IMG/VR virus record: IMGVR_UViG_3300027819_000001
Coordinates: 17,541 to 81,540 of that record
Origin: a virus
Lineage: Duplodnaviria > Caudoviricetes
Strand: one strand, 5' to 3'
DNA: 64,000 bases
Below are positions 17,149-63,738 of the stretch, one piece after another. A program made the position numbers and the translations under genes. Each line of letters starts with the position of its first letter. Position 1 is the first letter of the stretch. The notes under the pieces are model-generated. The model made no database searches and was not told the DNA's origin. It saw only the letters and a program-made list of their open reading frames with translations.

Positions 17149-18035
17149 AACGTCTTGACCGCCTCCAGCACATTGCGTTTCGCAATGTCCCATGTCCTGG
17201 CCTTTGCCCAAGCGATCCCTTCGAGCCTGGTTTTCTCCGTCTCCTTCACGTCGATCACCACCCGGCGCATCTCAGCAATGAGACTGTCCCCTGTAAAGGC
17301 CGTTAAACGAGCGGGAGAGCCCCTCAGAGCCATTTTGTTCACTGGTTGGAGTACCAGGCACCCCGAAGCCATCGCCGCCGTGGAGGCCATTCCAAGGCCG
17401 TTCGGATCACAGGACAGGTAACAGTCGATGGATTGGTACCACTTGGCCATTTCATGCCATGGATACCAAACCTTGGAATTGAGAGTGACCATGGAGGCAT
17501 CCTGGCTTGATCCGAACGCCTTTCCAAACACATTTGGCACAATGAATGCGTTCTTGTGTGTCTTGCGCTGGTCCAGTCCGAATACGATGTGGCGGCGGCG
17601 GCCTGGGAGTCTGTTTCGACGCGGGCAAGGAGGAGTTTCCCACATGAGATTCCATTTCTCAGGACTGTCGTCCGATACCACCGCATCACCTGCCGTGAAT
17701 ATCTCAGGAGAATAGCCAATCGGAAACCGCTCTCCAATCTCAAGAAGCTCGGTATTCGGATGCAATGGAGGATGCTCAATCGTGATACCCTTTGTGATGA
17801 ACACCTTCGTCGCCGGTGAGCACATGTTGCCAGCAGGCCCGATCAGAACCTCTGGCGTCCCATCGAACGGCTTGCCAATCCTCTCCCGGATCATGTAGTC
17901 CGCCTTCTCCGGCATCTTCAGTGGGTTCAGCACAACGTCGATCCCAGCCTCCAACAGCCAGGACATTACCTCACGACTCAGGATTCCCCAGTCCGAGTTG
18001 TCCAGGTAGGAACGTAGCGATAGGCGGGAGATCAT
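17145..18035 (-). CDS. GT-B glycosyltransferase-like protein (GT4-type C-terminal half)
   Basis: M..WYQSIDCYLS...G.GM....AMASG.LV and A..RTWD motifs. Confidence 0.65.
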   Translation of the reverse strand: MISRLSLRSYLDNSDWGILSREVMSWLLEAGIDVVLNPLKMPEKADYMIRERIGKPFDGTPEVLIGPAGNMCSPATKVFITKGITIEHPPLHPNTELLEIGERFPIGYSPEIFTAGDAVVSDDSPEKWNLMWETPPCPRRNRLPGRRRHIVFGLDQRKTHKNAFIVPNVFGKAFGSSQDASMVTLNSKVWYPWHEMAKWYQSIDCYLSCDPNGLGMASTAAMASGCLVLQPVNKMALRGSPARLTAFTGDSLIAEMRRVVIDVKETEKTRLEGIAWAKARTWDIAKRNVLEAVKTL

Positions 18036-30274: not shown

Positions 30275-31876
30275 ATGGCGAAGAAGAATACGGCTACGGT
30301 TACGAGAACTCCTGTTCCTTGGGATGTCCTATTCCCAAAACAGATGCAGGTTTTCAATTGCTTCAAACACATCCTTTTGATCAGCGGTTCAAGGTTGGGA
30401 GGCAAAACTCATAGCGCCATCTTTAAGGTGGTAAGGCATCTCTGGGAGACTCCAGGCGCCCGAGTTGGGGTGTTCGCAAAATCAAAGACTCTCGCCAAGG
30501 ATGGTGGTTCATGGAACAAGCTGGTGAACGAAACAATACCGTTCTGGATTACGTGCGGATTGACTGGCATGAGTCCGGAAGTGTCGATGCAGTACACGTC
30601 AGTGAATCGCCAAGGTCTTCCAGGCCAGATCCAGGATTCGGCAACAAGAACTTCCATTGCTACCATCCGCAATTACTGGGGAGGCGAATCATCGGCCATG
30701 CTCTTCTCCATCGAGCACGACCAGGAAATCTTCGACAAGGTGAAAAACAAGGAGTTCAGCATGGTTTGGGTGATCGAGCTTTCCATGTTCAAGGATCCGA
30801 ACATCCTGGCTGCTCTCCTCCTCACACTCCGCGTTGAACATCTCCGCCCGCAGAACGGTGAGCCTGATACCAAGCGCCAATTCATCGCCGATACCAATCC
30901 CGATGAAGAGCAGGGTGATGAGTCCTGGATCTACCAGACGTTCTACAAACTCCGGAATGAAAAACCTCAGGCTGGCAAGGAGTTGACGGAAGGAGAGAAG
31001 TTCGCTGAACGGTACCGGTCAATGATGGAGGTAATCGAGTTCTTTATCGAGGACAATCCCACCGTGACCGAAGATCAAAAGGCCATTCTTTGGACACAAT
31101 GCCAGAGCGACCCAATGCTGCACGACTCCTGGTTCTACGGCAAATGGGGAGCAGGTTGCCGTCAGAAGGACCGTCACTTCTCAGACATTTTCCAGAAAGA
31201 GATTCACGTCATCAAAGGGGAACTTGAAGACTACGACATCGAGATCAATCCCATGTCCACCCGACTATACACTGGATGGGATATCGGACTTGCCCACCAC
31301 GCCGCCGTCATCATCGACATCTGGTACCGAAAGGAGATCAGGAACGGCGAGGAGATCAACGTGGCCTGCTTTTCTATCCTGGAGGAACATTGTGCTGACA
31401 AGGAGCAGATCACCCTTCACGAATACGCCACGGAGTTCATGAAGAAGCTTGAGAACATCGAGAAGGCACACGGTAAGACCTACTCCATCATTTCCTACGC
31501 AGACGACAGCGCAACGAACGTCCACCGTCCGACATCGGGCACGTTCGACAACGTTCACATCTCCGTGGCCAGCAAAGGAAGAATTGAATTGATCGGGACT
31601 CCAAAGCCTGTTGGAAGTCAGGAGGTAAGGGTTGACCTTGTAAGGGTGCTCCTCAAGGAGCAGCGGATATTCATCGCTGCCAGGTGCGTTCGAATGATCG
31701 AGATGTTCATGAAACTACGCCGAAGCAAGAAGGAGTTCATCGTTTGGGGAGATTACAAGCATATCTTTGATGCTCTTTCCTACGCCTTGTACGAGGAAAT
31801 GCAACGAATCGAAATCTTCAAGGAACAGTATCCTGGGGCTTCAAGCGCCCCCACGTCTGGCGTTTCTATCCGCTGA
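30275..31876 (+). CDS. terL: Terminase large subunit
   Basis: Walker A SGSRLGGKT, Walker B-like WVIE, DTNP coupling motif, nuclease GWDIG and HIFDALSY. Confidence 0.9.
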   Translation: MAKKNTATVTRTPVPWDVLFPKQMQVFNCFKHILLISGSRLGGKTHSAIFKVVRHLWETPGARVGVFAKSKTLAKDGGSWNKLVNETIPFWITCGLTGMSPEVSMQYTSVNRQGLPGQIQDSATRTSIATIRNYWGGESSAMLFSIEHDQEIFDKVKNKEFSMVWVIELSMFKDPNILAALLLTLRVEHLRPQNGEPDTKRQFIADTNPDEEQGDESWIYQTFYKLRNEKPQAGKELTEGEKFAERYRSMMEVIEFFIEDNPTVTEDQKAILWTQCQSDPMLHDSWFYGKWGAGCRQKDRHFSDIFQKEIHVIKGELEDYDIEINPMSTRLYTGWDIGLAHHAAVIIDIWYRKEIRNGEEINVACFSILEEHCADKEQITLHEYATEFMKKLENIEKAHGKTYSIISYADDSATNVHRPTSGTFDNVHISVASKGRIELIGTPKPVGSQEVRVDLVRVLLKEQRIFIAARCVRMIEMFMKLRRSKKEFIVWGDYKHIFDALSYALYEEMQRIEIFKEQYPGASSAPTSGVSIR

Positions 31877-38011: not shown

Positions 38012-38084
38012 TGGCCACCCCTGGGCTCGCACCAGGACCTCCCACCACTGGTTTGATGGTCGTCCTACTTTAGACCAGGCAGCC
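38012..38084 (-). tRNA. tRNA-like element / pseudo-tRNA with a non-canonical anticodon loop (CAAACCA) and no encoded CCA
   Basis: Cloverleaf by hand: acceptor GGCTGCC/GGTGGCC, D stem GTCT/GGAC, anticodon stem ACCAT/GTGGT, T arm CCTGG-TGCGAGC-CCAGG, discriminator A; 73 nt. Confidence 0.7.
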
Positions 38085-51869: not shown

Positions 51870-52142
51870 GGCTATCATCATCCTCCCACACTGCCATTTG
51901 TAAGAAAAAGATACCAGAACTTCTTACAGAACCCAGTTGTAAAGCATTCCTTTACAACTCACGCCAGGTCCGGCCTCAACCAGAACTCCTTACCATCACC
52001 ACCACTCCATCCAAACATCTCGGTCTCTGCTGGCCCACACCAAAACGCAAACCGTGCAAATCCGAACTCGTCCATCCGAAAGTTCAAAATCGAGGTAACC
52101 TGGTTCCATCGCTCAGGCGTCACCCTCACCAGTCCGTATCCC

Positions 52143-52418
52143 TCAGGATTTATTCCCATCGTTCTCTTCCTCCGATAGTTGGTCCAACAATTCCACATAC
52201 CCAATCATGTCCACCCGGTTGTCCCGCTTCGAACGGTTTATCTCCCGAGCAATCTTCAACTGGATCAAACAAATGCAAACCTGCTTTGCTGTAACCTCCA
52301 TCCCAAACACCGGCGACCAAAGCTTCGCCAACCTACCAAAGCTCACCCTGGCATCACCATACGACTCCCGCCGCTGCCCGTTGATGATCTCCAATGCCTC
52401 TTCGCTGACCGATTTCAT
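52143..52418 (-). CDS. DUF6378-like protein
   Basis: A..IING.R...YGD....F.R.A.LWS...V..C.I.LK.AR....DN.VD..GY. Confidence 0.85.
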   Translation of the reverse strand: MKSVSEEALEIINGQRRESYGDARVSFGRLAKLWSPVFGMEVTAKQVCICLIQLKIAREINRSKRDNRVDMIGYVELLDQLSEEENDGNKS

Positions 52419-52681
52419 ACAGTTGCCTCCAGCGGATACTTCCCCCTCAGTCCTTCCCACCTATTCAATGGCCCAAAGCTCGCCACCCAGAACTCCGTTA
52501 TCGTCACTCCAATCACCCCGAGATACCGAATCAACTGGTCCGTCCCCAATCTTCCAGTCCTCTCCCACCTCCCAACCGTGATAGTCCTCACTCCCATCAC
52601 CCCGGCCACCGCCTCCTGGCTCATCTTCGCCACCTTCCTCAACCGCTTCATCTCACCACCGATCTGTGTTAGTTCGTTCAT
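52415..52681 (-). CDS. XRE-family HTH regulator
   Basis: IG..MKRLR....MSQEAVA..MGV..ITVGRWE. Confidence 0.8.
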   Translation of the reverse strand: MNELTQIGGEMKRLRKVAKMSQEAVAGVMGVRTITVGRWERTGRLGTDQLIRYLGVIGVTITEFWVASFGPLNRWEGLRGKYPLEATV

Positions 52682-53094
52682 TGCTCCTCCTTGCTGTTCG
52701 GTATCCGGATTATCGGCGCGTGTTTCACCCAACTCATCCTGATCCGGTCATCCCGATGAACCCGCTCCTCGGGCCGAACATGCCAATCATGCCCCTTCGG
52801 CTTTGTGCATGTTCCAACCTTCGATGATCCTTCAGGATTCGGTTCCCCGCACATGTTGTTCCGTACCTTGTAATCCTCCCAGGCTTTGTCCTCCATCCGC
52901 CCCCATCTCCCAATCCGATACGCCCTCAGTTGATCAGCCTTATCCAACGCATCCCGGCGCGCATCCGATCCAGGAAGCCTCCCTTCCGCGTCCTGTCTCC
53001 AATATTCCTCCCCACCCTCAAACGCCAGCATCATCAGTTCTTCAGCATTCATCTTTTTCATAAACATTCCTTCCATCATCAATGAGTCTTTCAT
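52678..53094 (-). CDS. Hypothetical protein
   Basis: ATGA-coupled ORF with a C...KGH..H motif. Confidence 0.55.
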   Translation of the reverse strand: MKDSLMMEGMFMKKMNAEELMMLAFEGGEEYWRQDAEGRLPGSDARRDALDKADQLRAYRIGRWGRMEDKAWEDYKVRNNMCGEPNPEGSSKVGTCTKPKGHDWHVRPEERVHRDDRIRMSWVKHAPIIRIPNSKEEQ

Positions 53095-53696
53095 ATGTCC
53101 ATTCCTTTACTGTGTTCCAGTTGACCGCAACTCCCCTCCCAATCATCAGGTTCCCCGTAAGACGCGTTCAACTCCGAGATCGGCGGCTCTATCGGATCAG
53201 GCGGGTCCTGGTGCTCTGTTTGAGAGGGCAGGTGCGATGTCACTATCCCATTCAAAACATCGTGCCCAACACCAGCGGCTTCAGCGTTCTCGTAGTTCGC
53301 CTCCCCAGGCAACGGCAATCCAGCCTTCCTCGCTCGGTAATCCCTTTGCGCTTGCCGGTTATACGCCCGCCGATCCTCATCCCCCCTCATCTTCCGATAC
53401 TTCGCCCCATTCACCACCCGGTAATCATACTGCCCCAACCTCACTAACTTCCTCCCCTCCTCATCCTTCGTCCTCGAATTCGGATCCGGCATACAAAAGA
53501 ACTTGATTGCCTTCTCAATTTCCTTCGGCTCTTCCCCTATCAACATCCCCACCAATACCGGATTCAGGATCACCACACTCCCATACTTCGTACTCGGCTT
53601 CTGCTTCGCGATAACATACCCCCACACAGCAAACTTGATCGCCCCTGCCCCTATCATTGACCCCTCATACATCGACTCATGGTGCTTCCCATACAT
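53091..53696 (-). CDS. Replication-initiator-like N-terminal (wHTH) protein
   Basis: MYGK..ESMYEGSM.GAG...PDP.SR...EGR.L...Y.VVN..KY...RRAYNR..QR.YR pattern of phage replisome-organiser N-domains (recalled, not searched). Confidence 0.55.
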   Translation of the reverse strand: MYGKHHESMYEGSMIGAGAIKFAVWGYVIAKQKPSTKYGSVVILNPVLVGMLIGEEPKEIEKAIKFFCMPDPNSRTKDEEGRKLVRLGQYDYRVVNGAKYRKMRGDEDRRAYNRQAQRDYRARKAGLPLPGEANYENAEAAGVGHDVLNGIVTSHLPSQTEHQDPPDPIEPPISELNASYGEPDDWEGSCGQLEHSKGMDI

Positions 53697-53987
53697 AGAT
53701 TTTACGCCTTCCAGTTGTTCATTTCCCCTTATTTTTACCACCTTTCACTCATGTCTGTCAATACCTGTCAGCACGCGTGTAGCTTTTTGTAAATGTCAGC
53801 CAAAGTGAGCCCATTCAGATACAGATACAGACTCTCCCTACCCTCTCTTGCTCAATTTCATCTCTCCTACAAAGTCCAAGATCATCCCAATTCCTACCTC
53901 GGTTCAAGCCATGCTCAAAGCCAAAGGACCCAGATAAAAAATTCCAATTTGAGGTTCGCAAGGGGACATCTCTATTCGATTGGCGCA

Positions 53988-54021
53988 CCCCGCCCCGGTC
54001 CCGCCTCTACCCGGCACCCCC
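53988..54021 (-). other. G-quadruplex-forming motif in the non-coding switch region
   Basis: Minus strand GGGGG-TGCC-GGG-TAGAGGC-GGG-ACC-GGGG-C-GGGG. Confidence 0.6.
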
Positions 54022-57213: not shown

Positions 57214-57288
57214 TTCGGTTCTGCCATCCTACGGGGTGGCAGACCTGGACAGCCATGAAGGTTGTTCTGAAAGGAAAATACCACAATG
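57214..57288 (+). promoter_or_regulatory. Early-gene three-way-junction leader
   Basis: TTCGGTT-CTGCCA..TGGCAG-ACC-GGACAGCC..GGTTGTTC-AAAGGAAAATACCACA-ATG. Confidence 0.7.
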
Positions 57289-57588
57289 ACAACGATTACA
57301 GGAAATACGTACCCGGTGAAGGATCAGTTGAAAGCACTGGGTGGAAAATGGAACGCTGACGCCAAAGGTTGGAACGTTCCGGATGACAAGGCCGAACAGG
57401 CCAAAGCCATCGTGGCTGCTGCTGGACCGGCAAAGCCGTTCACCGGAGCGCGAAGCGATAGCAGTTATCGCCCAACACGCTGCAAGGAGTGCGGGTGCTC
57501 CGCGACTCGCTACAACAAGATTTACCGTAACGGCCAGTGCCGTGACTGCTACGTCTCGAACAAGGAAGAGGCTGAGATGGGGTACTGA
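57286..57588 (+). CDS. DUF5710-like domain protein with a C-terminal CxxC finger
   Basis: GNTYPVKDQLKALGGKW...KGW; CKEC...CRDC. Confidence 0.7.
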   Translation: MTTITGNTYPVKDQLKALGGKWNADAKGWNVPDDKAEQAKAIVAAAGPAKPFTGARSDSSYRPTRCKECGCSATRYNKIYRNGQCRDCYVSNKEEAEMGY

Positions 57589-57589
57589 T

Positions 57590-59071
57590 ATGAACCTTAA
57601 ACCCTACCGAAATGCTGGGGTACCGATACTCGCTATCGAGACGGCGGACCCTGGGGCGTTGATTAAGAGCGCGGTACGATCGCTGAACGGCAAGAGCAAC
57701 GTAACGCCTGTGATGCAATGGGACATTGTTAACGGGCTTACGGGGTTGAATGACCCTGGGAACGAGCTTGCGAGACAGGTTGGTCCGAATGGTGCGCTCG
57801 ATACTGGCAACCCTACCGAGTGCCTGTCCAAGCTGTGTGCGGATGGGACAGAACAGGCTATAACGTTCTTTCACATGGCCGGGAGGTTCCTGGATAACCC
57901 ATCGCTGGTACAGGCCGTTTGGCTCTGCCGGGATGCATTCAAGGCTCGGGCTTGCACCTTGGTGCTGCTCGGGCCGTCGTTCGTACTCCCTGAGGAGTTG
58001 AAACATGACGTGGTGGTGGTGACCGAGCCATTGCCTGATGCGGCTGAGATAGGCCGTATCGCGTCACAATTGGTCCAGGACGCATCTTTACCGGAGATGG
58101 GTGCCGAGATGGTGGTCAAGGTGACAGAATCGCTCCTGGGGCTTTCTGCGTTTGCGGCTGAGCAGTGCTTGGCTTTGAGCTTGACCAAGGCGAACGGTAT
58201 CGACCTGGTGGCATTGAGGGAGCGGCGCCGGTCGTTTCTTCAACAGTTGGCCGGGATTGAGGTTCGGCGTGATTCGATCACCTTTGCGGACATTGCTGGG
58301 TACGACAACGTGAAGGATGCGCTGAGCCGGAAGATCAAAGGGAAACGGCCACCCGGCTTGATTCTCTGGGTCGATGAGATGGAGAGAGCGGTTGCTGGCA
58401 GCCAGGGGGACACGTCCGGTGTGACGCAAGACCAGGTTGGCACGTTGTTGACTTGGATGCAAGACAAGCTGAATGCGGATAAGCTGTCCGCGATGCTCTG
58501 TATCGGCTTCCCTGGTACGGGAAAGAGTGCCATCAGCATGGCCCTACGGAACGAGGCACAATGTGAGTGCCTACGGTTGGACATGGGAGCCATGAAGGGT
58601 TCACTCGTCGGCGAGAGTGAGAAGAAGGTCCGCCAGGTGCTCAAGACGGTGGACGCCATGGCCGGGAGTCACATCCTCATGATCGCAACCTGCAACTCGG
58701 TTGAAGGCTTGCCTGCCCCGTTCATAAGTCGATGCGCGTTCGGTTCCTACATGTTTGATTTGCCACGACAGGAGGAAATGATCAGCCTGTGGGAAATCAA
58801 GATGAAGAAGTACGGCATCGTGGATGGCAAACCGCCGTTGGTTCTGTCTACCGGTTGGACAGGTCGAGAGATACAGCAATGCTGCTTCCTTGCGGATGAC
58901 CTGCAAATCACATTGGCCGAAGCGGCCAAGTACATCGCTCCGTTCTGCAAGAGTGGGGCGGCTGAGATCGAGACATTGAGAAACCAAGCCCATGGCCGGT
59001 GGATCAGTGCAAGTGCGCCTGGGATCTATCGGAAGGATGAGGCCAAGACAGGAAGGAGGATGATGGAATGA
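57590..59071 (+). CDS. Ycf46-like AAA+ ATPase with a permuted ATPase domain (Walker B block before Walker A block)
   Basis: Order in sequence: ILWVDE (58373) ... LLTWMQDK, then GFPGTGKS (58505), LDMG...GSLVGESE, then IATCN (sensor 1, 58694). Confidence 0.9.
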   Translation: MNLKPYRNAGVPILAIETADPGALIKSAVRSLNGKSNVTPVMQWDIVNGLTGLNDPGNELARQVGPNGALDTGNPTECLSKLCADGTEQAITFFHMAGRFLDNPSLVQAVWLCRDAFKARACTLVLLGPSFVLPEELKHDVVVVTEPLPDAAEIGRIASQLVQDASLPEMGAEMVVKVTESLLGLSAFAAEQCLALSLTKANGIDLVALRERRRSFLQQLAGIEVRRDSITFADIAGYDNVKDALSRKIKGKRPPGLILWVDEMERAVAGSQGDTSGVTQDQVGTLLTWMQDKLNADKLSAMLCIGFPGTGKSAISMALRNEAQCECLRLDMGAMKGSLVGESEKKVRQVLKTVDAMAGSHILMIATCNSVEGLPAPFISRCAFGSYMFDLPRQEEMISLWEIKMKKYGIVDGKPPLVLSTGWTGREIQQCCFLADDLQITLAEAAKYIAPFCKSGAAEIETLRNQAHGRWISASAPGIYRKDEAKTGRRMME

Positions 59072-59262
59072 ACGCATATCGTTTCGACTTCCTGACCAAC
59101 TGTTCAGAGTGCGGTTCACGCATCTATCGGTGCGACAAGCTGAGAATCGAGATGGACGGTTACATGTTCTGCTCCAAGTCGTGCAAGTGGATGAACGACA
59201 GGAGGGAGGCACACGCTCGCCACTGGCAAGCTTCCGTCTGCGACGCTGACTATATACCCTGA
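59068..59262 (+). CDS. Small Cys-rich (TRASH/zinc-finger-like) protein
   Basis: CSEC...FCSKSC. Confidence 0.55.
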   Translation: MNAYRFDFLTNCSECGSRIYRCDKLRIEMDGYMFCSKSCKWMNDRREAHARHWQASVCDADYIP

Positions 59263-59344
59263 TTCCCCCGTTGTGGCCCTACGCGGGGCCACTCCGGAGC
59301 AATCAAGCACCCGGTGCGCCGCCGTTACGGCGCGATAAAATATG
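59263..59344 (+). promoter_or_regulatory. Early-gene leader (degenerate, no RBS copy)
   Basis: CGTT-GTGGCCC..GGGCCAC-TCCGGAGCAATCAAGC; shares CCGGAGCAATCAAGC with the 59711 copy. Confidence 0.55.
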
Positions 59345-59710
59345 CAAGTGAAATCATTAGTTGACCTGTGCAAACGCGATGGAGAATTGGGGACACACAA
59401 CCGGGTTGAGCGCCTTACGCGCTACGCCGCAATGGTTGGGTGGGATAGCTTCGGGTCCCACTACAAGGAGTCCGATCCCACCGACGTTCCGGCTGATGTG
59501 GTCCGGCAGATACTCGCGCTCGACTACGCCGAGCGGTAGACGGACAATCTGGCAGAGATGGGCCGTCAGATGGGCAAGATACATGTCTCGGTGCCGTCCA
59601 ACGTCAACGTCTGGCAGCACCTCAAGGGTGAGCAGATCATGGCGGGCGCGGCCCGGCAATTGGCGGATGCCGCGAAGCTGCTCACCGAGGTCACCGAGGT
59701 AGCGCGATAG
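59342..59710 (+). pseudogene. Early ORF with an in-frame TAG at 59537-59539
   Basis: Frame continues TDNLAEMGRQ...TEVAR to a TAG that abuts the next leader element. Confidence 0.5.
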
Positions 59711-59780
59711 TTTCGTTCTGGCGTCACACCGTGGCGCTAGACCGGAGCAATCAAGCTTCAGAAGAAAGGATTACCACATG
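59711..59780 (+). promoter_or_regulatory. Early-gene three-way-junction leader
   Basis: TTTCGTT-CTGGCGTCAC..GTGGCGCTAG-ACC-GGAGC..GCTTC-AGAAGAAAGGATTACCAC-ATG. Confidence 0.7.
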
Positions 59781-59984
59781 ACACAGGACATCAAGAGGAA
59801 CATGGCTTTCCAGATCGGAGAGAAGCTGACCAACGAACCTGACCCACGGGACAAGGATATGTGGTTGGTGTGGCGGGTTCGCAAGGGTGACGTGACGCTG
59901 CTGGGAGCGTACGAGGCTTGGAACAAGCGGATCGCTGAATGGAACGCCGAATGGCAGAAGGAGCTTGGAGGACACATTGAGTGA
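59778..59984 (+). CDS. Hypothetical early protein
   Basis: Conserved leader/RBS. Confidence 0.6.
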   Translation: MTQDIKRNMAFQIGEKLTNEPDPRDKDMWLVWRVRKGDVTLLGAYEAWNKRIAEWNAEWQKELGGHIE

Positions 59985-60546
59985 CGGGGCGGCTGATCCT
60001 GCTTCGCTGCTGAGGCGAGCCCAAGCGATTGAGCGTGCAAGAGAGAGTCCATACAATTATTTCAGCGGGAGGCTTAAAACGCCTCCAGAGGAAGAGACGC
60101 GCATCCGCAGCGAGCTTGAGATCATCAAGCAGGACTACGCGGCGAAGCGGACGTTCACAACGACCTGGGTGCCATTCTATCTACCAAGCGGCAAGGTTGC
60201 TGTGAAAGTAGGCAATGAAGACGTTCGTGTTTTTGAGGACAAAAAGGACTATCCGGCTATGGATTATGCGCTTGATTTCTGCGCTCGGAACCGTCCGGTG
60301 CGTGACGACTCACCCAAGCCGAACCAATGGGAGAACCTGTTTCCAAGTGATAGATCACAACCATTATCGACGGGGAATCCGTTAGAGGTTTTTGGCTTGG
60401 TTGGTTACGATTCTGGCGGTGAGCAAGCTGCACGGGATAGAGTCCGTGCCAGGCTTGAGGCCAGAAAGAGGCAAGAGCCCAAGCCGAAGTCGAAGCCCAA
60501 GCGGGATCCTCTTGAGAGGGTATATCGCAAGTTCAACCTGGAATGA
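59965..60546 (+). CDS. Hypothetical early protein
   Basis: Collinear ORF; start uncertain. Confidence 0.5.
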   Translation: MEDTLSDGAADPASLLRRAQAIERARESPYNYFSGRLKTPPEEETRIRSELEIIKQDYAAKRTFTTTWVPFYLPSGKVAVKVGNEDVRVFEDKKDYPAMDYALDFCARNRPVRDDSPKPNQWENLFPSDRSQPLSTGNPLEVFGLVGYDSGGEQAARDRVRARLEARKRQEPKPKSKPKRDPLERVYRKFNLE

Positions 60547-60549
60547 TTT

Positions 60550-60804
60550 ATGAGACAACTGACATACGGAGATTGTAATCGAATCGCGGTTGCTCTTGGG
60601 TTATCGCCCGGAGAGTGGCATGGCCGGGATGACGACGCCCGAGGGCTGGCCTTCACGGTCTGCGGCGGCGAGTTGACGGATGGCTCCAAGCCGCCGCCTT
60701 GGCTTGGCCGCATGAACGGCTGGCATGTTGAGGAGATCGCCAAGGAAGCCATTGAACGCCATGCCGTTGAGCGGGTTGGCCGATACGGATGGAAAGCTTT
60801 ATGA
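60550..60804 (+). CDS. Hypothetical early protein
   Basis: Collinear ORF. Confidence 0.5.
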   Translation: MRQLTYGDCNRIAVALGLSPGEWHGRDDDARGLAFTVCGGELTDGSKPPPWLGRMNGWHVEEIAKEAIERHAVERVGRYGWKAL

Positions 60805-60929
60805 ATGCATGACGTGCCGGTGCGCCTCACCGGATGAGCGTGTAGAGCAGAACGGCCATAGCGCCTAAGCCAACGACATGAATGCAGATGAACCCTGAAC
60901 AAAAAGGATACGCCTTGAAAAAGACCTAG

Positions 60930-61006
60930 CCGTTCTCTCACTGGTAGCACTGCCAGTGAGAGACCGGAGCGGTTGCTCCAAAACAACGAAAGGAAAATAC
61001 CATATG
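60930..61006 (+). promoter_or_regulatory. Early-gene three-way-junction leader
   Basis: CCGTT-CTCTCACTGG..CCAGTGAGAG-ACC-GGAGC..GCTCC-AACGAAAGGAAAATACCAT-ATG. Confidence 0.75.
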
Positions 61007-61216
61007 AGCGAAGAACAAGCAGTGGAGTGGGTCTACGACCAGGACGAATCCGAATCGCATGACGCAAATGATCCCTGGTGGGATGATCTGGAACGGGCAT
61101 TCGTGGCAATCGTCGGACGGAAGCCAACAGCGCAGGAGGAACAGGAAGGAGTCTGGTCGCACCTTTGCGCCATGACGCCGAACTGTGGCACACGCCCAGA
61201 AACGGAGGTCGCATGA
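61004..61216 (+). CDS. Hypothetical acidic early protein
   Basis: Conserved leader/RBS. Confidence 0.6.
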   Translation: MSEEQAVEWVYDQDESESHDANDPWWDDLERAFVAIVGRKPTAQEEQEGVWSHLCAMTPNCGTRPETEVA

Positions 61217-61337
61217 ACATTTTAGCCCACCTAAGCACGACGCCGCACGGACACCCCGGCGAGATCGTGATCATCATTGTCGGATACGCCCTGGCGGCGG
61301 TTGCGCTCGCCTGGTGCTTTCGGAGAGGAGTGAAGCG

Positions 61338-61568
61338 ATGAACGATCCACTCAAAGTCCGCGCCGCCGATGGCAATTATGTGCTGGACGGCGATGACGTG
61401 GTGACAGACACCACGGGCGACAACGACCGATGCAACGCAATTGCGGCCATGCACGGTATGAACTACGTGAAAATCTTACGGAGGGCGTTGGAAACCCTTC
61501 CAGCGGTGTTCACGTTTCGACAGTTCGCAACTGCGTGTGAATCCATTTCCAATGAGGAGGGATTTTAA
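61338..61568 (+). CDS. Hypothetical early protein
   Basis: ATGA-coupled. Confidence 0.5.
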   Translation: MNDPLKVRAADGNYVLDGDDVVTDTTGDNDRCNAIAAMHGMNYVKILRRALETLPAVFTFRQFATACESISNEEGF

Positions 61569-61570
61569 CT

Positions 61571-61867
61571 ATGCCATGCTGGACAGCTACAATGGCTACC
61601 GTGAACTTAAAAGTGGCGGACCTTGACCTGCTGGAAGCAGCGTTTAAGGAGATGAATCTCAATCCGGTGCGCCAAGGCGAAGTGATCTACTTCGGCCAAC
61701 GAGGAGAAAGTTTCAACAAATCGACTGGAGAATTACGGGTACGATCGGAGCAGTCCGTTGCACCCATCAAGCGCGCTTACAGCCGCCAAATCGTGAAGAA
61801 AGCTGAGCGGTACGGCTGGAAGGTGGTCGATAAAGGACAAGGGAAATTCGAGCTTTTGAAAAGGTAA
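61571..61867 (+). CDS. DUF1257 (Ycf35)-like protein
   Basis: V.L...D.DLL..A..EM.L ... IKRAYS..IV..A..YGW.V pattern. Confidence 0.6.
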   Translation: MPCWTATMATVNLKVADLDLLEAAFKEMNLNPVRQGEVIYFGQRGESFNKSTGELRVRSEQSVAPIKRAYSRQIVKKAERYGWKVVDKGQGKFELLKR

Positions 61868-61871
61868 CCCT

Positions 61872-62078
61872 ATGCCAGACAAAATCACGGTGACTGTGCT
61901 CGAAAACGGGCAACTGAAGATCGAGACCGATACAATAAGTCTCGGGAACCATGTTTTGGCCGAACGCCTATTACAGGAACTCTGCACACTCGCAGGCGGC
62001 GAGGTAACGCGGAAGAACAAGAAAGGCTATGCGGAGCACTCGCACGGCCAGGGACAAGGATTCCATGCACACCACTGA
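61872..62078 (+). CDS. DUF2997-like protein with a His-rich tail
   Basis: ITVTVLENGQLKIETD.....H..AE.L..L..LAGG..TR pattern; follows the DUF1257-like gene. Confidence 0.6.
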   Translation: MPDKITVTVLENGQLKIETDTISLGNHVLAERLLQELCTLAGGEVTRKNKKGYAEHSHGQGQGFHAHH

Positions 62079-62683: not shown

Positions 62684-62824
62684 AAGATCATCAACATAAC
62701 TCCAGCGATGGAGAAGGAATACCTGGCTGGAACATTGCCGGGATTCCTATCGTGCAATCCAAACTTCGGAATGGCTCATCTTATCGAGGTGACAGTCTGG
62801 CCAGTGGAAGGCGGTGCTCTGTGA
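62681..62824 (+). CDS. Small early protein (47 aa)
   Basis: Conserved RBS; GTGA overlap with the next gene. Confidence 0.55.
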   Translation: MKIINITPAMEKEYLAGTLPGFLSCNPNFGMAHLIEVTVWPVEGGAL

Positions 62825-63738
62825 AGACCGTCGATGTTAACCTTTTCCGCGATGCCGTGGCGTTCACGATGACGCTGCGCAAATGGGGCAACCGCCGTTC
62901 GGGCGACATGGCCAAGGTTGAGATGGACGCCAGCAAGTCCCGGTTCAAACTCTCCAAGCAGTTGGTTGAGAGTCCTGAGTTGGACGCGATCAACCAACAC
63001 CAAGGCGAGGTCTACAAATGGTGCCTGGAACGGAGCGTTCCAAGCTTCTTCAAGGACGGGCTCTACCTGGTCCGGTTGTCGGAGGTCGAAAACTTCGAAG
63101 CCAAGCTCAAAGAGGAGACGGCCAAGATGCAGGCGCTGATCAAGGACTTCTGCGATGCCTATCCTAAGCGCAAGGATGAGGCAAGAGCGGCTTTGAACGG
63201 CCAATACAGGGAGGATGACTACCCGACCGTTGAGGACATGCCTGGGCGGTTTTCCATCACCTGGAACTGGATCGCCTTTGGTGTCCCGGAGAACCTGCCT
63301 GCTGAGCTTCGGGCTTCTGAGGCTGCAAAGATCGAGCAGCAATTCAAGGACGCTGAAACCGAGATCATGTCCGCTCTTCGGGAAGGGTTCGGCAAGATCG
63401 TCAAGCACGTCACCGATCGGTTGGGTGAGGAGACCAAGGACGGCGAGAAGAAGCCGAAGATATTCCGTGACACCCTGTTCGAGGACATGACGACTTTCGT
63501 CACAACGTTCTCTGCCAGGAACCTAGTGAACGACACCGAGCTTGAGAAATGCGTCAAAGCTGCTCAGTCAATCCTCGCCAATGTTAGTGGCGGTGATGCC
63601 AAGAGTAAAGCTCAGGTGATTCGGGACTCCTCGCAGCTTCGGGCTCAGACAGCCGAAGCGTTCACCCTGCTAAAGTCCGCCGTCGATAAGACAATCGCGG
63701 ATAAACCCCAACGCAAGTTCAACTTCGACGACGAATAG
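62821..63738 (+). CDS. DUF3150-like protein
   Basis: W...R...K.L.SP.L..I...S.P....G.YLV...A...L...Y...DYP....RF.I.W pattern. Confidence 0.7.
   Translation: MKTVDVNLFRDAVAFTMTLRKWGNRRSGDMAKVEMDASKSRFKLSKQLVESPELDAINQHQGEVYKWCLERSVPSFFKDGLYLVRLSEVENFEAKLKEETAKMQALIKDFCDAYPKRKDEARAALNGQYREDDYPTVEDMPGRFSITWNWIAFGVPENLPAELRASEAAKIEQQFKDAETEIMSALREGFGKIVKHVTDRLGEETKDGEKKPKIFRDTLFEDMTTFVTTFSARNLVNDTELEKCVKAAQSILANVSGGDAKSKAQVIRDSSQLRAQTAEAFTLLKSAVDKTIADKPQRKFNFDDE

Follow-up and report, generated by a model that had tools for sequence, protein, structure and literature searches.

A gene of a tailed virus (Caudoviricetes) in the IMG/VR record IMGVR_UViG_3300027819_000001 encodes a Ycf46-like ATPase of the classic AAA clade in which the Walker B block precedes the Walker A block, and this order very probably goes back to a real rewiring of the AAA+ core that is ancient and has been inherited widely. 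The stretch analysed here, hereafter the window, comprises the 3' 64 kb (positions 17,541 to 81,540) of this 81,540-bp record, and all positions below are those of the window. The ATPase gene starts with an ATG at 57590, one base after the stop codon of the upstream gene, and this start agrees with the N-termini of its homologues.

A Ycf46-like ATPase with two exchanged core blocks

Reading along the chain, the motifs run from DIAGYDNVK (helix alpha0) to LILWVDE (Walker B, with V261-D262-E263), GDTSGV (273-278) and the helix GTLLTWMQDK (284-293); only then come GFPGTGKS (306-313, Walker A), LDMG (330-333), LVGESE (339-344) and DAMAGS (355-360), followed by HILMIATCN (361-369, the sensor-1 strand ending in N369), R381 and the lid. 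Chance falls far short of explaining such a succession. The gene and its parts are as follows.

57590..59071, plus strand: permuted Ycf46-like AAA+ ATPase gene, 493 aa, defined by its open reading frame (ORF) and translation and by full-length colinear homologues at 40-59% identity
57590..58264 (aa 1 to about 225), plus strand: N-terminal degenerate AAA-like domain without a P-loop, matching the N-domain of normal-order relatives (E 1e-14)
58352..58480 (aa 255-297), plus strand: Block B, moved forward, with beta3/Walker B (D262-E263), the GDTSG loop (pore loop 2) and alpha3
58481..58669 (aa 298-360), plus strand: Block A, with beta1, Walker A (G306-S313), alpha1, beta2, the LVGESE pore loop 1 and alpha2
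58670..58744, plus strand: normally placed beta4, carrying N369 of sensor 1, and the region of the Arg finger (R381)
58745..59071, plus strand: beta5, the helical lid (GWTGREI, 422-428) and a C-terminal tail ending in GRRMME (predicted strand 386-389 and helices within 394-467)

The sequence motifs of the classic AAA clade (PF00004) are present one by one: a Walker A of the form GxxGxGK[ST] (GFPGTGKS, 306-313), a Walker B of the form hhhhDE (LILWVDE, 255-263), a sensor-1 Asn at the end of beta4 (N369) and, in the second region of homology, an Arg finger (R381). The colinear succession Walker A - beta2 - Walker B - sensor 1, given in the initial annotation as the canonical order, is seen in the normal-order relatives and is absent from this protein. 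Both motif blocks typical of Ycf46-like proteins are present and conserved, pore loop 1 with LVGESE as well as the block of the form DE-x-[DE]-K...GD-x-SG...L-T-W. The exchange of two adjacent beta-alpha blocks is formally a circular permutation of the sub-region from beta1 to alpha3, not of the whole domain.

Profile comparisons place the exchange precisely. A hidden Markov model (HMM) was built from 120 normal-order relatives encoded by phages, which had been collected with the AAA-ATPase of Agrobacterium phage JP1 as seed. It aligns to the protein in four pieces: aa 3-202 with profile positions 20-223 (E 1e-14), aa 257-293 with 356-394 (E 6e-9), aa 301-359 with 297-355 (E 9e-20) and aa 361-408 with 397-445. 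The crossed profile ranges show that the two middle blocks are exactly exchanged. When aa 255-297 and 298-360 are exchanged in silico, the four fragments merge into a single colinear match (profile 20-445, 154.8 bits), with the whole sequence now scoring 159.9 instead of 128.3 bits. The reciprocal search gives the same picture, since every normal-order phage ATPase among those listed is matched by the HMM of the permuted family as four separate, block-swapped segments; BLASTP against the JP1 protein likewise yields non-colinear, crossing segments. The initial annotation had proposed, from motifs, that the Ycf46-type blocks occur in swapped order with sensor 1 after both, and had suggested a split alignment as a check: both parts of the proposal are upheld by this alignment, sensor 1, Arg finger and lid all lying in normal order.

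General-purpose models capture the domain partially. The best stretch of Pfam PF00004 covers aa 302-365, i.e. profile positions 1-63 only, sequence matches in the PDB (VAT, p97 and SPATA5) likewise end at about residue 365, and no Pfam, NCBIfam or PHROGs model spans the domain colinearly. The N-terminal domain of about 220 aa is shared with Ycf46-like phage proteins, the comparison here being with the 120 phage-borne relatives.

The swapped order is a family-wide trait

A word-indexed search recovered 625 relatives, the best 120 of them at 40-59% identity and mostly with full coverage, and an exhaustive HMMER search of 1.84 billion cluster representatives returned 1032 clusters (at 50% identity) with E<1e-30, of which the best 150 are all full-length matches that are colinear or split by insertion only. 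By motif patterns, Walker B lies about 44 aa ahead of Walker A in 236 of 268 relatives and the reverse holds in none; the other 32 are accounted for by pattern misses or multiple matches. At least 80 other IMG/VR viral contigs (20-172 kb) encode full-length relatives, and 14 loci in cellular metagenome-assembled genomes extend the family to at least five phyla (Armatimonadota, Planctomycetota, Nitrospirales, Myxococcota-like and Dehalococcoidia genomes). Among cultured phages, the family was found only in Tunturiibacter phage Tunturi_3, whose gp103 shows 34% identity and the same order of motifs.

These data bear directly on an assembly or gene-calling artefact, i.e. a swap created by local misassembly or by a chimeric contig in one record. 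That the record is a metagenomic viral contig speaks for such an artefact; nonetheless, the same order stands in one uninterrupted frame in 236 of the 268 independent relatives and the normal order in none, full-length relatives occur on 80 other viral contigs, metagenome-assembled genomes of several phyla carry the family, the genome of the Tunturi_3 isolate shows the order directly, and the contig itself, which ends in direct terminal repeats, has a completeness rating of 100%. We accordingly reject misassembly on account of the family-wide conservation and assign an artefact next to no probability. The swap is genuine, is contained in a single open frame and extends across the surveyed homologues, so that neither of the two outcomes that the initial annotation had named as speaking against it, a local misassembly and homologues uniformly of canonical order, applies.

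For a phylogenetic tree of 72 permuted and 180 normal-order proteins, the normal-order sequences were virtually re-ordered before alignment. It separates the permuted from the normal-order proteins exactly, with support of 1.0, and the same split is obtained from the columns outside the swapped region taken by themselves. An exact and fully supported split means that one ancient event suffices to account for the permuted order.

The fold probably retains the canonical strand order

An AlphaFold2 model built from a 108-sequence alignment without templates has a mean predicted local distance difference test score (pLDDT) of 95.6 and a predicted template modeling score (pTM) of 0.90, with high confidence across the block junctions. 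It places strand 255-261 and helix 278-295 in Block B (pLDDT 90-98), strand 299-306, helix 312-323, strand 326-330 and helix 340-358 in Block A, and strands 361-368 and 386-389 thereafter, so that the elements alternate beta-alpha-beta-alpha-beta-alpha-beta in swapped order. The whole model superposes on the D1+D2 tandem of p97, Cdc48, NVL and AFG2 over about 400 residues with Z of about 16-19 (e.g. residues 1-471 on p97 212-763, Z 18), which identifies the N-domain as a degenerate, P-loop-less AAA-like tier. Residues from about 220 to 475 superpose on Vps4, spastin and p97 D2 over 200-217 residues at 2.3-3.2 Å (Z 16-17); the alignment shortfall of about 40 residues in the C-domain is the loss expected of a sequential aligner if one block is out of order.

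The sheet order was approached through coevolution, using mean-field direct coupling analysis on 260 family members (effective number of sequences, Meff, 223). The strongest couplings between strands are 259-364 and 259-362 (b3-b4), 259-330 (b3-b2), 303-366 (b1-b4) and 304-389 (b1-b5), and the coupling 260-313 joins Walker B to Walker A. With the strands arranged as b5-b1-b4-b3-b2, the coupling matrix becomes tridiagonal: of 31,125 ranks, neighbouring strands take 65, 32, 12 and 25, and the non-adjacent ones rank 700 or worse, except for b1-b3 (residues 259-299), which ranks 67. Couplings between helices alpha3 and alpha2 fit canonical packing. Together the model and the couplings indicate that the canonical 5-1-4-3-2 sheet is kept and that only the connectivity of the chain has changed. 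The topological rearrangement of the core sheet inferred in the initial annotation therefore survives with respect to chain connectivity and probably gives way with respect to the spatial order of the strands.

An alternative is that the spatial topology itself is new, with the Walker B strand outside the canonical beta3 slot, a new variant of the P-loop fold and a differently built active site. The order of the sequence taken by itself is compatible with this, sequential aligners leave about 35-50 C-domain residues unaligned, and the b1-b3 coupling ranks 67th. Against it, the b3-b4 and b3-b2 couplings named above rank 12th to 28th, the coupling 260-313 connects Walker B with Walker A, the alpha3-alpha2 couplings agree with canonical packing, AlphaFold2 is very confident across the junctions, and the geometry would permit all crossovers to be right-handed with the helices on their usual faces. 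A new spatial topology is accordingly very unlikely, and retention of the canonical sheet under altered connectivity is the reading followed below.

Catalytic residues, inteins and the case for an active enzyme

Across 108 sequences with a mean column identity of only 36%, the invariant residues include G306, G309 and K312 of the P-loop, E263 of Walker B, G341 of pore loop 1, N369 of sensor 1 and R381, the Arg finger, whereas 90% or more of the sequences keep D262. The claim that all catalytic residues are retained holds across these 108 sequences. Five longer members carry inteins, all with homing-endonuclease domains, of which three (P0127, P0233 and P0153) interrupt the P-loop and two (P0137 and P0176) lie directly before the Cys of the sensor-1 motif ATCN. 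The three insertion points are GPPG|C-AKS, GTGK|S and IAT|CN, the conserved Cys of ATCN being the residue that follows the intein. Inteins typically sit at the most constrained sites of essential enzymes. From the conservation of these residues, the inteins and the retained gene module described below, we infer a functional enzyme; ATP hydrolysis, ring formation, substrate threading and partner binding are predicted.

Several points weigh against the proposal of an ancient rewiring that left an active motor. The tree of 72 + 180 sequences does not single out a normal-order sister lineage of the permuted clade, and five normal-order loci with higher permuted-HMM scores and a DUF3150-like neighbour (L112, L119, L121, L127 and L136) are candidate, not confirmed, sisters. 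No tandem-duplicated intermediate is seen among the longer family members, those of 650-900 aa being products of intein insertion and not of duplication; with the sister group not singled out, the duplication-deletion route proposed below has no supporting intermediate. On the structural side, the b1-b3 coupling departs from the tridiagonal pattern, the alignments used for AlphaFold2 and for the coupling analysis overlap and so are not fully independent, and the sheet order is derived from coevolution and predicted secondary structure. In the Arg-finger region, which reads FISRCAF, two of three consecutive consensus arginines are replaced, leaving only the invariant R381. Finally, all members of the family are so far known from sequence and prediction.

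The last two of these points, together with the N-domain that is already degenerate, favor a catalytically dead scaffold, in which the rewired domain would at most bind nucleotide and serve as a structural or adaptor subunit of the module formed with DUF1257-, DUF2997- and DUF3150-like proteins. Such a scaffold would hardly be expected to keep the Walker A Lys, the Walker B Glu, the sensor-1 Asn and one Arg invariant at such low mean column identity, nor the pore-loop motifs LVGESE and GDTSG, and the inteins target the P-loop and sensor 1 in the manner typical of sites under the strongest functional constraint. We consider a dead scaffold very unlikely and retain the reading of an active, rewired ATPase.

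The associated gene module

ORFs around 81 permuted loci were clustered and compared with those around about 78 normal-order loci. In the window, the module comprises the following genes beyond the ATPase.

59965..60546, plus strand: 193-aa ORF ending in RKFNLE, without a Pfam or PHROG match; its membership in the module is inferred
61571..61867, plus strand: DUF1257 (Ycf35)-like partner, 98 aa, of a cluster (c9) found in 26 loci
61872..62078, plus strand: DUF2997-like partner, 68 aa, with a His-rich C-terminus (cluster c10)
62821..63738, plus strand: DUF3150-like partner, 305 aa from a GTG at 62821, ending in QRKFNFDDE, with a homologue in permuted-family loci

The DUF1257-like and DUF2997-like genes, whose proximity marks Ycf46-like systems, are thus both found near the ATPase (61571-61867 and 61872-62078). 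The window copy of the former has no Pfam match on its own; in a combined alignment of clusters c9 and c6, 10 of 29 members match PF06868 and the two clusters match each other by hhalign (95.6%, E 1e-8). For the latter, clusters c10 and c5 were aligned together, and 15 of the 29 sequences match PF11211 (best E 2e-18), with c10 against c5 at 95.7% by hhalign. The c10 subgroup, including the window copy, has histidine-rich tail ends, e.g. HSHGQGQGFHAHH, which are absent from subgroup c5; these tails possibly bind metal.

The third partner has no Pfam or PHROG match, and its AlphaFold2 model (pLDDT 91.9) resembles no solved fold at a cut-off of E<=0.001. A language model places it near phage clusters in which 12-18% of members carry PF11348, and the name DUF3150-like is used here as a lead drawn from these neighbours. 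In 77 of the 81 permuted loci, the ATPase gene is followed on its own strand by a homologue of about 300 aa, with a median spacing of 103 nt. Tunturi_3 gp96 (L001:9609-10637) is annotated as 'HNH endonuclease' and matches the HMM of this partner with E 1e-81, so that the deposited annotation looks wrong.

Counted across the permuted loci, DUF1257-like partners occur in 74 of 81, DUF2997-like partners in 74 and DUF3150-like partners in 75, with all three together in 72. Among the normal-order loci, both small partners are present in about 58-61 of 78, whereas the DUF3150-like gene occurs in only nine of about 78; the normal-order ATPases that have it are those scoring highest against the permuted HMM. 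That the rewired ATPase shares its module with its normal-order cousins argues that function was retained. The module of the window is more loosely arranged than those of most relatives: a stretch of about 2.5 kb (59071-61570), filled with small ORFs that match no family, separates the ATPase from the DUF1257-like gene, and the DUF3150-like gene lies about 3.7 kb past the ATPase, whereas the partner genes are within about 0.1-2 kb in most relatives.

In loci L004-L083, a SWIM-like family (cluster c11) has a C-terminal tail of the form R-x-hydrophobic-x-hydrophobic-acidic in common with both the ATPase and the DUF3150-like protein. In the window it appears as RKFNFDDE (DUF3150-like protein), RKFNLE (193-aa ORF) and the variant GRRMME (ATPase, 59051-59068); a scan of all 597 ORFs of the window gave five matches, two of them within the module. 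This tail may serve as a common docking peptide. A further family of 86 aa with a RASHVEP motif (cluster c8, e.g. L026:9176-9436) accompanies the module in 34 of the 81 loci, and no ORF of the window contains this motif.

In the surrounding genome, the virion genes occupy the minus strand from 0.5 to 30 kb of the window. Downstream of the replication genes lies a plus-strand region with many small genes.

30275-31876: large terminase
41-46 kb: replication initiator and DnaB-like helicase

Directly 5' of the ATPase gene, a 100-aa ORF (57286-57588) has a Cys-rich C-terminal half and a weak match to DUF5710 (E 4e-4, under the Pfam cut-off), and a 64-aa ORF (59068-59262) that overlaps the ATPase stop encodes a Cys-rich, zinc-ribbon-like product. 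The GC skew shows a strong local dip to -0.405 at 52-54 kb (52001-54000), where the coding strand seems to switch. A single tRNA-Val (anticodon AAC) is found at 38012-38084 on the minus strand.

Proposed origin and mechanism

We propose that the ancestral order was N-domain, [beta1/Walker A-alpha1-beta2-alpha2], [beta3/Walker B-alpha3], beta4, and that the derived one became N-domain, [beta3/Walker B-alpha3], [beta1/Walker A-alpha1-beta2-alpha2], beta4. The most likely route would be a tandem duplication of beta1-alpha3 followed by loss of the outer halves. Each of the three breakpoints falls within a loop on the N-terminal edge of the parallel sheet, so that the strands can keep their place (5-1-4-3-2) and the helices their face. 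On geometric grounds, the re-routed connections (linker to beta3, alpha3 to beta1 and alpha2 to beta4) would each shift by one or two strand widths, and all crossovers could stay right-handed. The nucleotide site would be built as usual from K312, D262/E263 and N369, with R381 supplied in trans. The protein most likely forms a ring with an inactive AAA-like N-domain tier above an active C-terminal tier, comparable to D1-D2 of p97/Cdc48, and this ring would use its pore loops (LVG and GDTSG) to remodel or unfold a protein substrate during infection, its predicted partners being the DUF1257/Ycf35-like, DUF2997-like and DUF3150-like proteins.

A more far-reaching proposal holds that the rewiring was not neutral and produced a mechanistically distinct motor, with a new allosteric path from hydrolysis to pore to upper ring that co-evolved with the near-obligate DUF3150-like partner and the shared tails. 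In such a motor the linker that leaves the inactive N-domain tier would lead straight into the block of Walker B, pore loop 2 and alpha3, and alpha2 would be joined directly to the sensor-1 strand. We regard this as unlikely, if somewhat less so than the dead scaffold or the new spatial topology.

Few enzyme folds are as well studied or as strongly conserved as the AAA+ core, and the order of its motifs is a defining feature in classifications and profile models. Its permutation should surprise AAA+ specialists and is experimentally tractable. That the fold tolerates the re-routing of three loops would be useful for protein engineering and for studies of folding pathways, and the family offers a natural experiment on how chain connectivity affects the coupling of hydrolysis to the pore loops. 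Given the permuted order, standard profiles cover only half of the domain and such proteins are consequently under-annotated. A single ancient event also provides a marker by which to follow how the Ycf46/Ycf35/DUF2997 module has spread among phages and mobile elements, and the existence of a cultured member, gp103 of Tunturi_3, opens the module to experiment.

Comparison with known systems

No published AAA+ protein with Walker B ahead of Walker A was found in the literature searched, outside of which most subscription journals fall; uses of 'permuted' in the papers retrieved concern unrelated cases (methyltransferases and FHA).

The closest relatives are the normal-order phage proteins, e.g. 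JP1_048 of Agrobacterium phage JP1 ('AAA-ATPase') and H10PHJ05_65 of Aeromonas phage HJ05, which belong to PHROG 8638 and carry the JGI name 'SpoVK/Ycf46/Vps4 family AAA+-type ATPase'. They share with the permuted family a homologous N-terminal domain, a similar length, LVGESE, the DE-x-[DE]-K...GD-x-SG...L-T-W-[ML]-Q block, a sensor 1 of the A-T-x-N type and the lid, and for the most part the same DUF1257-like and DUF2997-like neighbours, the DUF3150-like gene being found in nine of their loci. They differ in that their Walker A block comes first, whereas the permuted proteins have the blocks exchanged, form their own fully supported lineage and are almost always accompanied by the DUF3150-like gene (75/81 versus 9/~78 loci).

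Cyanobacterial and plastid Ycf46 (e.g. Synpcc7942_0417) belongs to the same AAA subfamily, a relation drawn from family names, motifs and the cited papers; it is cellular and has the normal order of motifs, whereas the permuted ATPase is phage-borne. In Synechococcus, Ycf46 is encoded in an operon of three genes; it is an AAA ATPase of unclear mechanism that interacts with KaiC (PMC13683863), and DUF2997 and Ycf35/DUF1257 are clustered in cyanobacteria (PMC4284462).

With the type II classic AAA+ unfoldases p97/VCP, Cdc48, NVL/Rix7 and AFG2, the protein shares the D1+D2 superposition, pore loops, the sensor-1 Asn and an Arg finger after beta4. Unlike them, it has an upper tier without a P-loop and a rewired active tier, at an identity of only 13-16%, and it has no N-terminal cofactor-binding domain of the p97 type.

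The nearest precedent known to us for natural P-loop NTPases with nucleotide-binding motifs in non-canonical order is presented by the circularly permuted GTPases RsgA/YjeQ, RbgA/YlqF and YqeH. These are the textbook case of permutation in P-loop NTPases: they belong to the TRAFAC class and not to the ASCE/AAA+ proteins, and their G4-G5 motifs are placed ahead of G1-G3, with both fold and activity kept.

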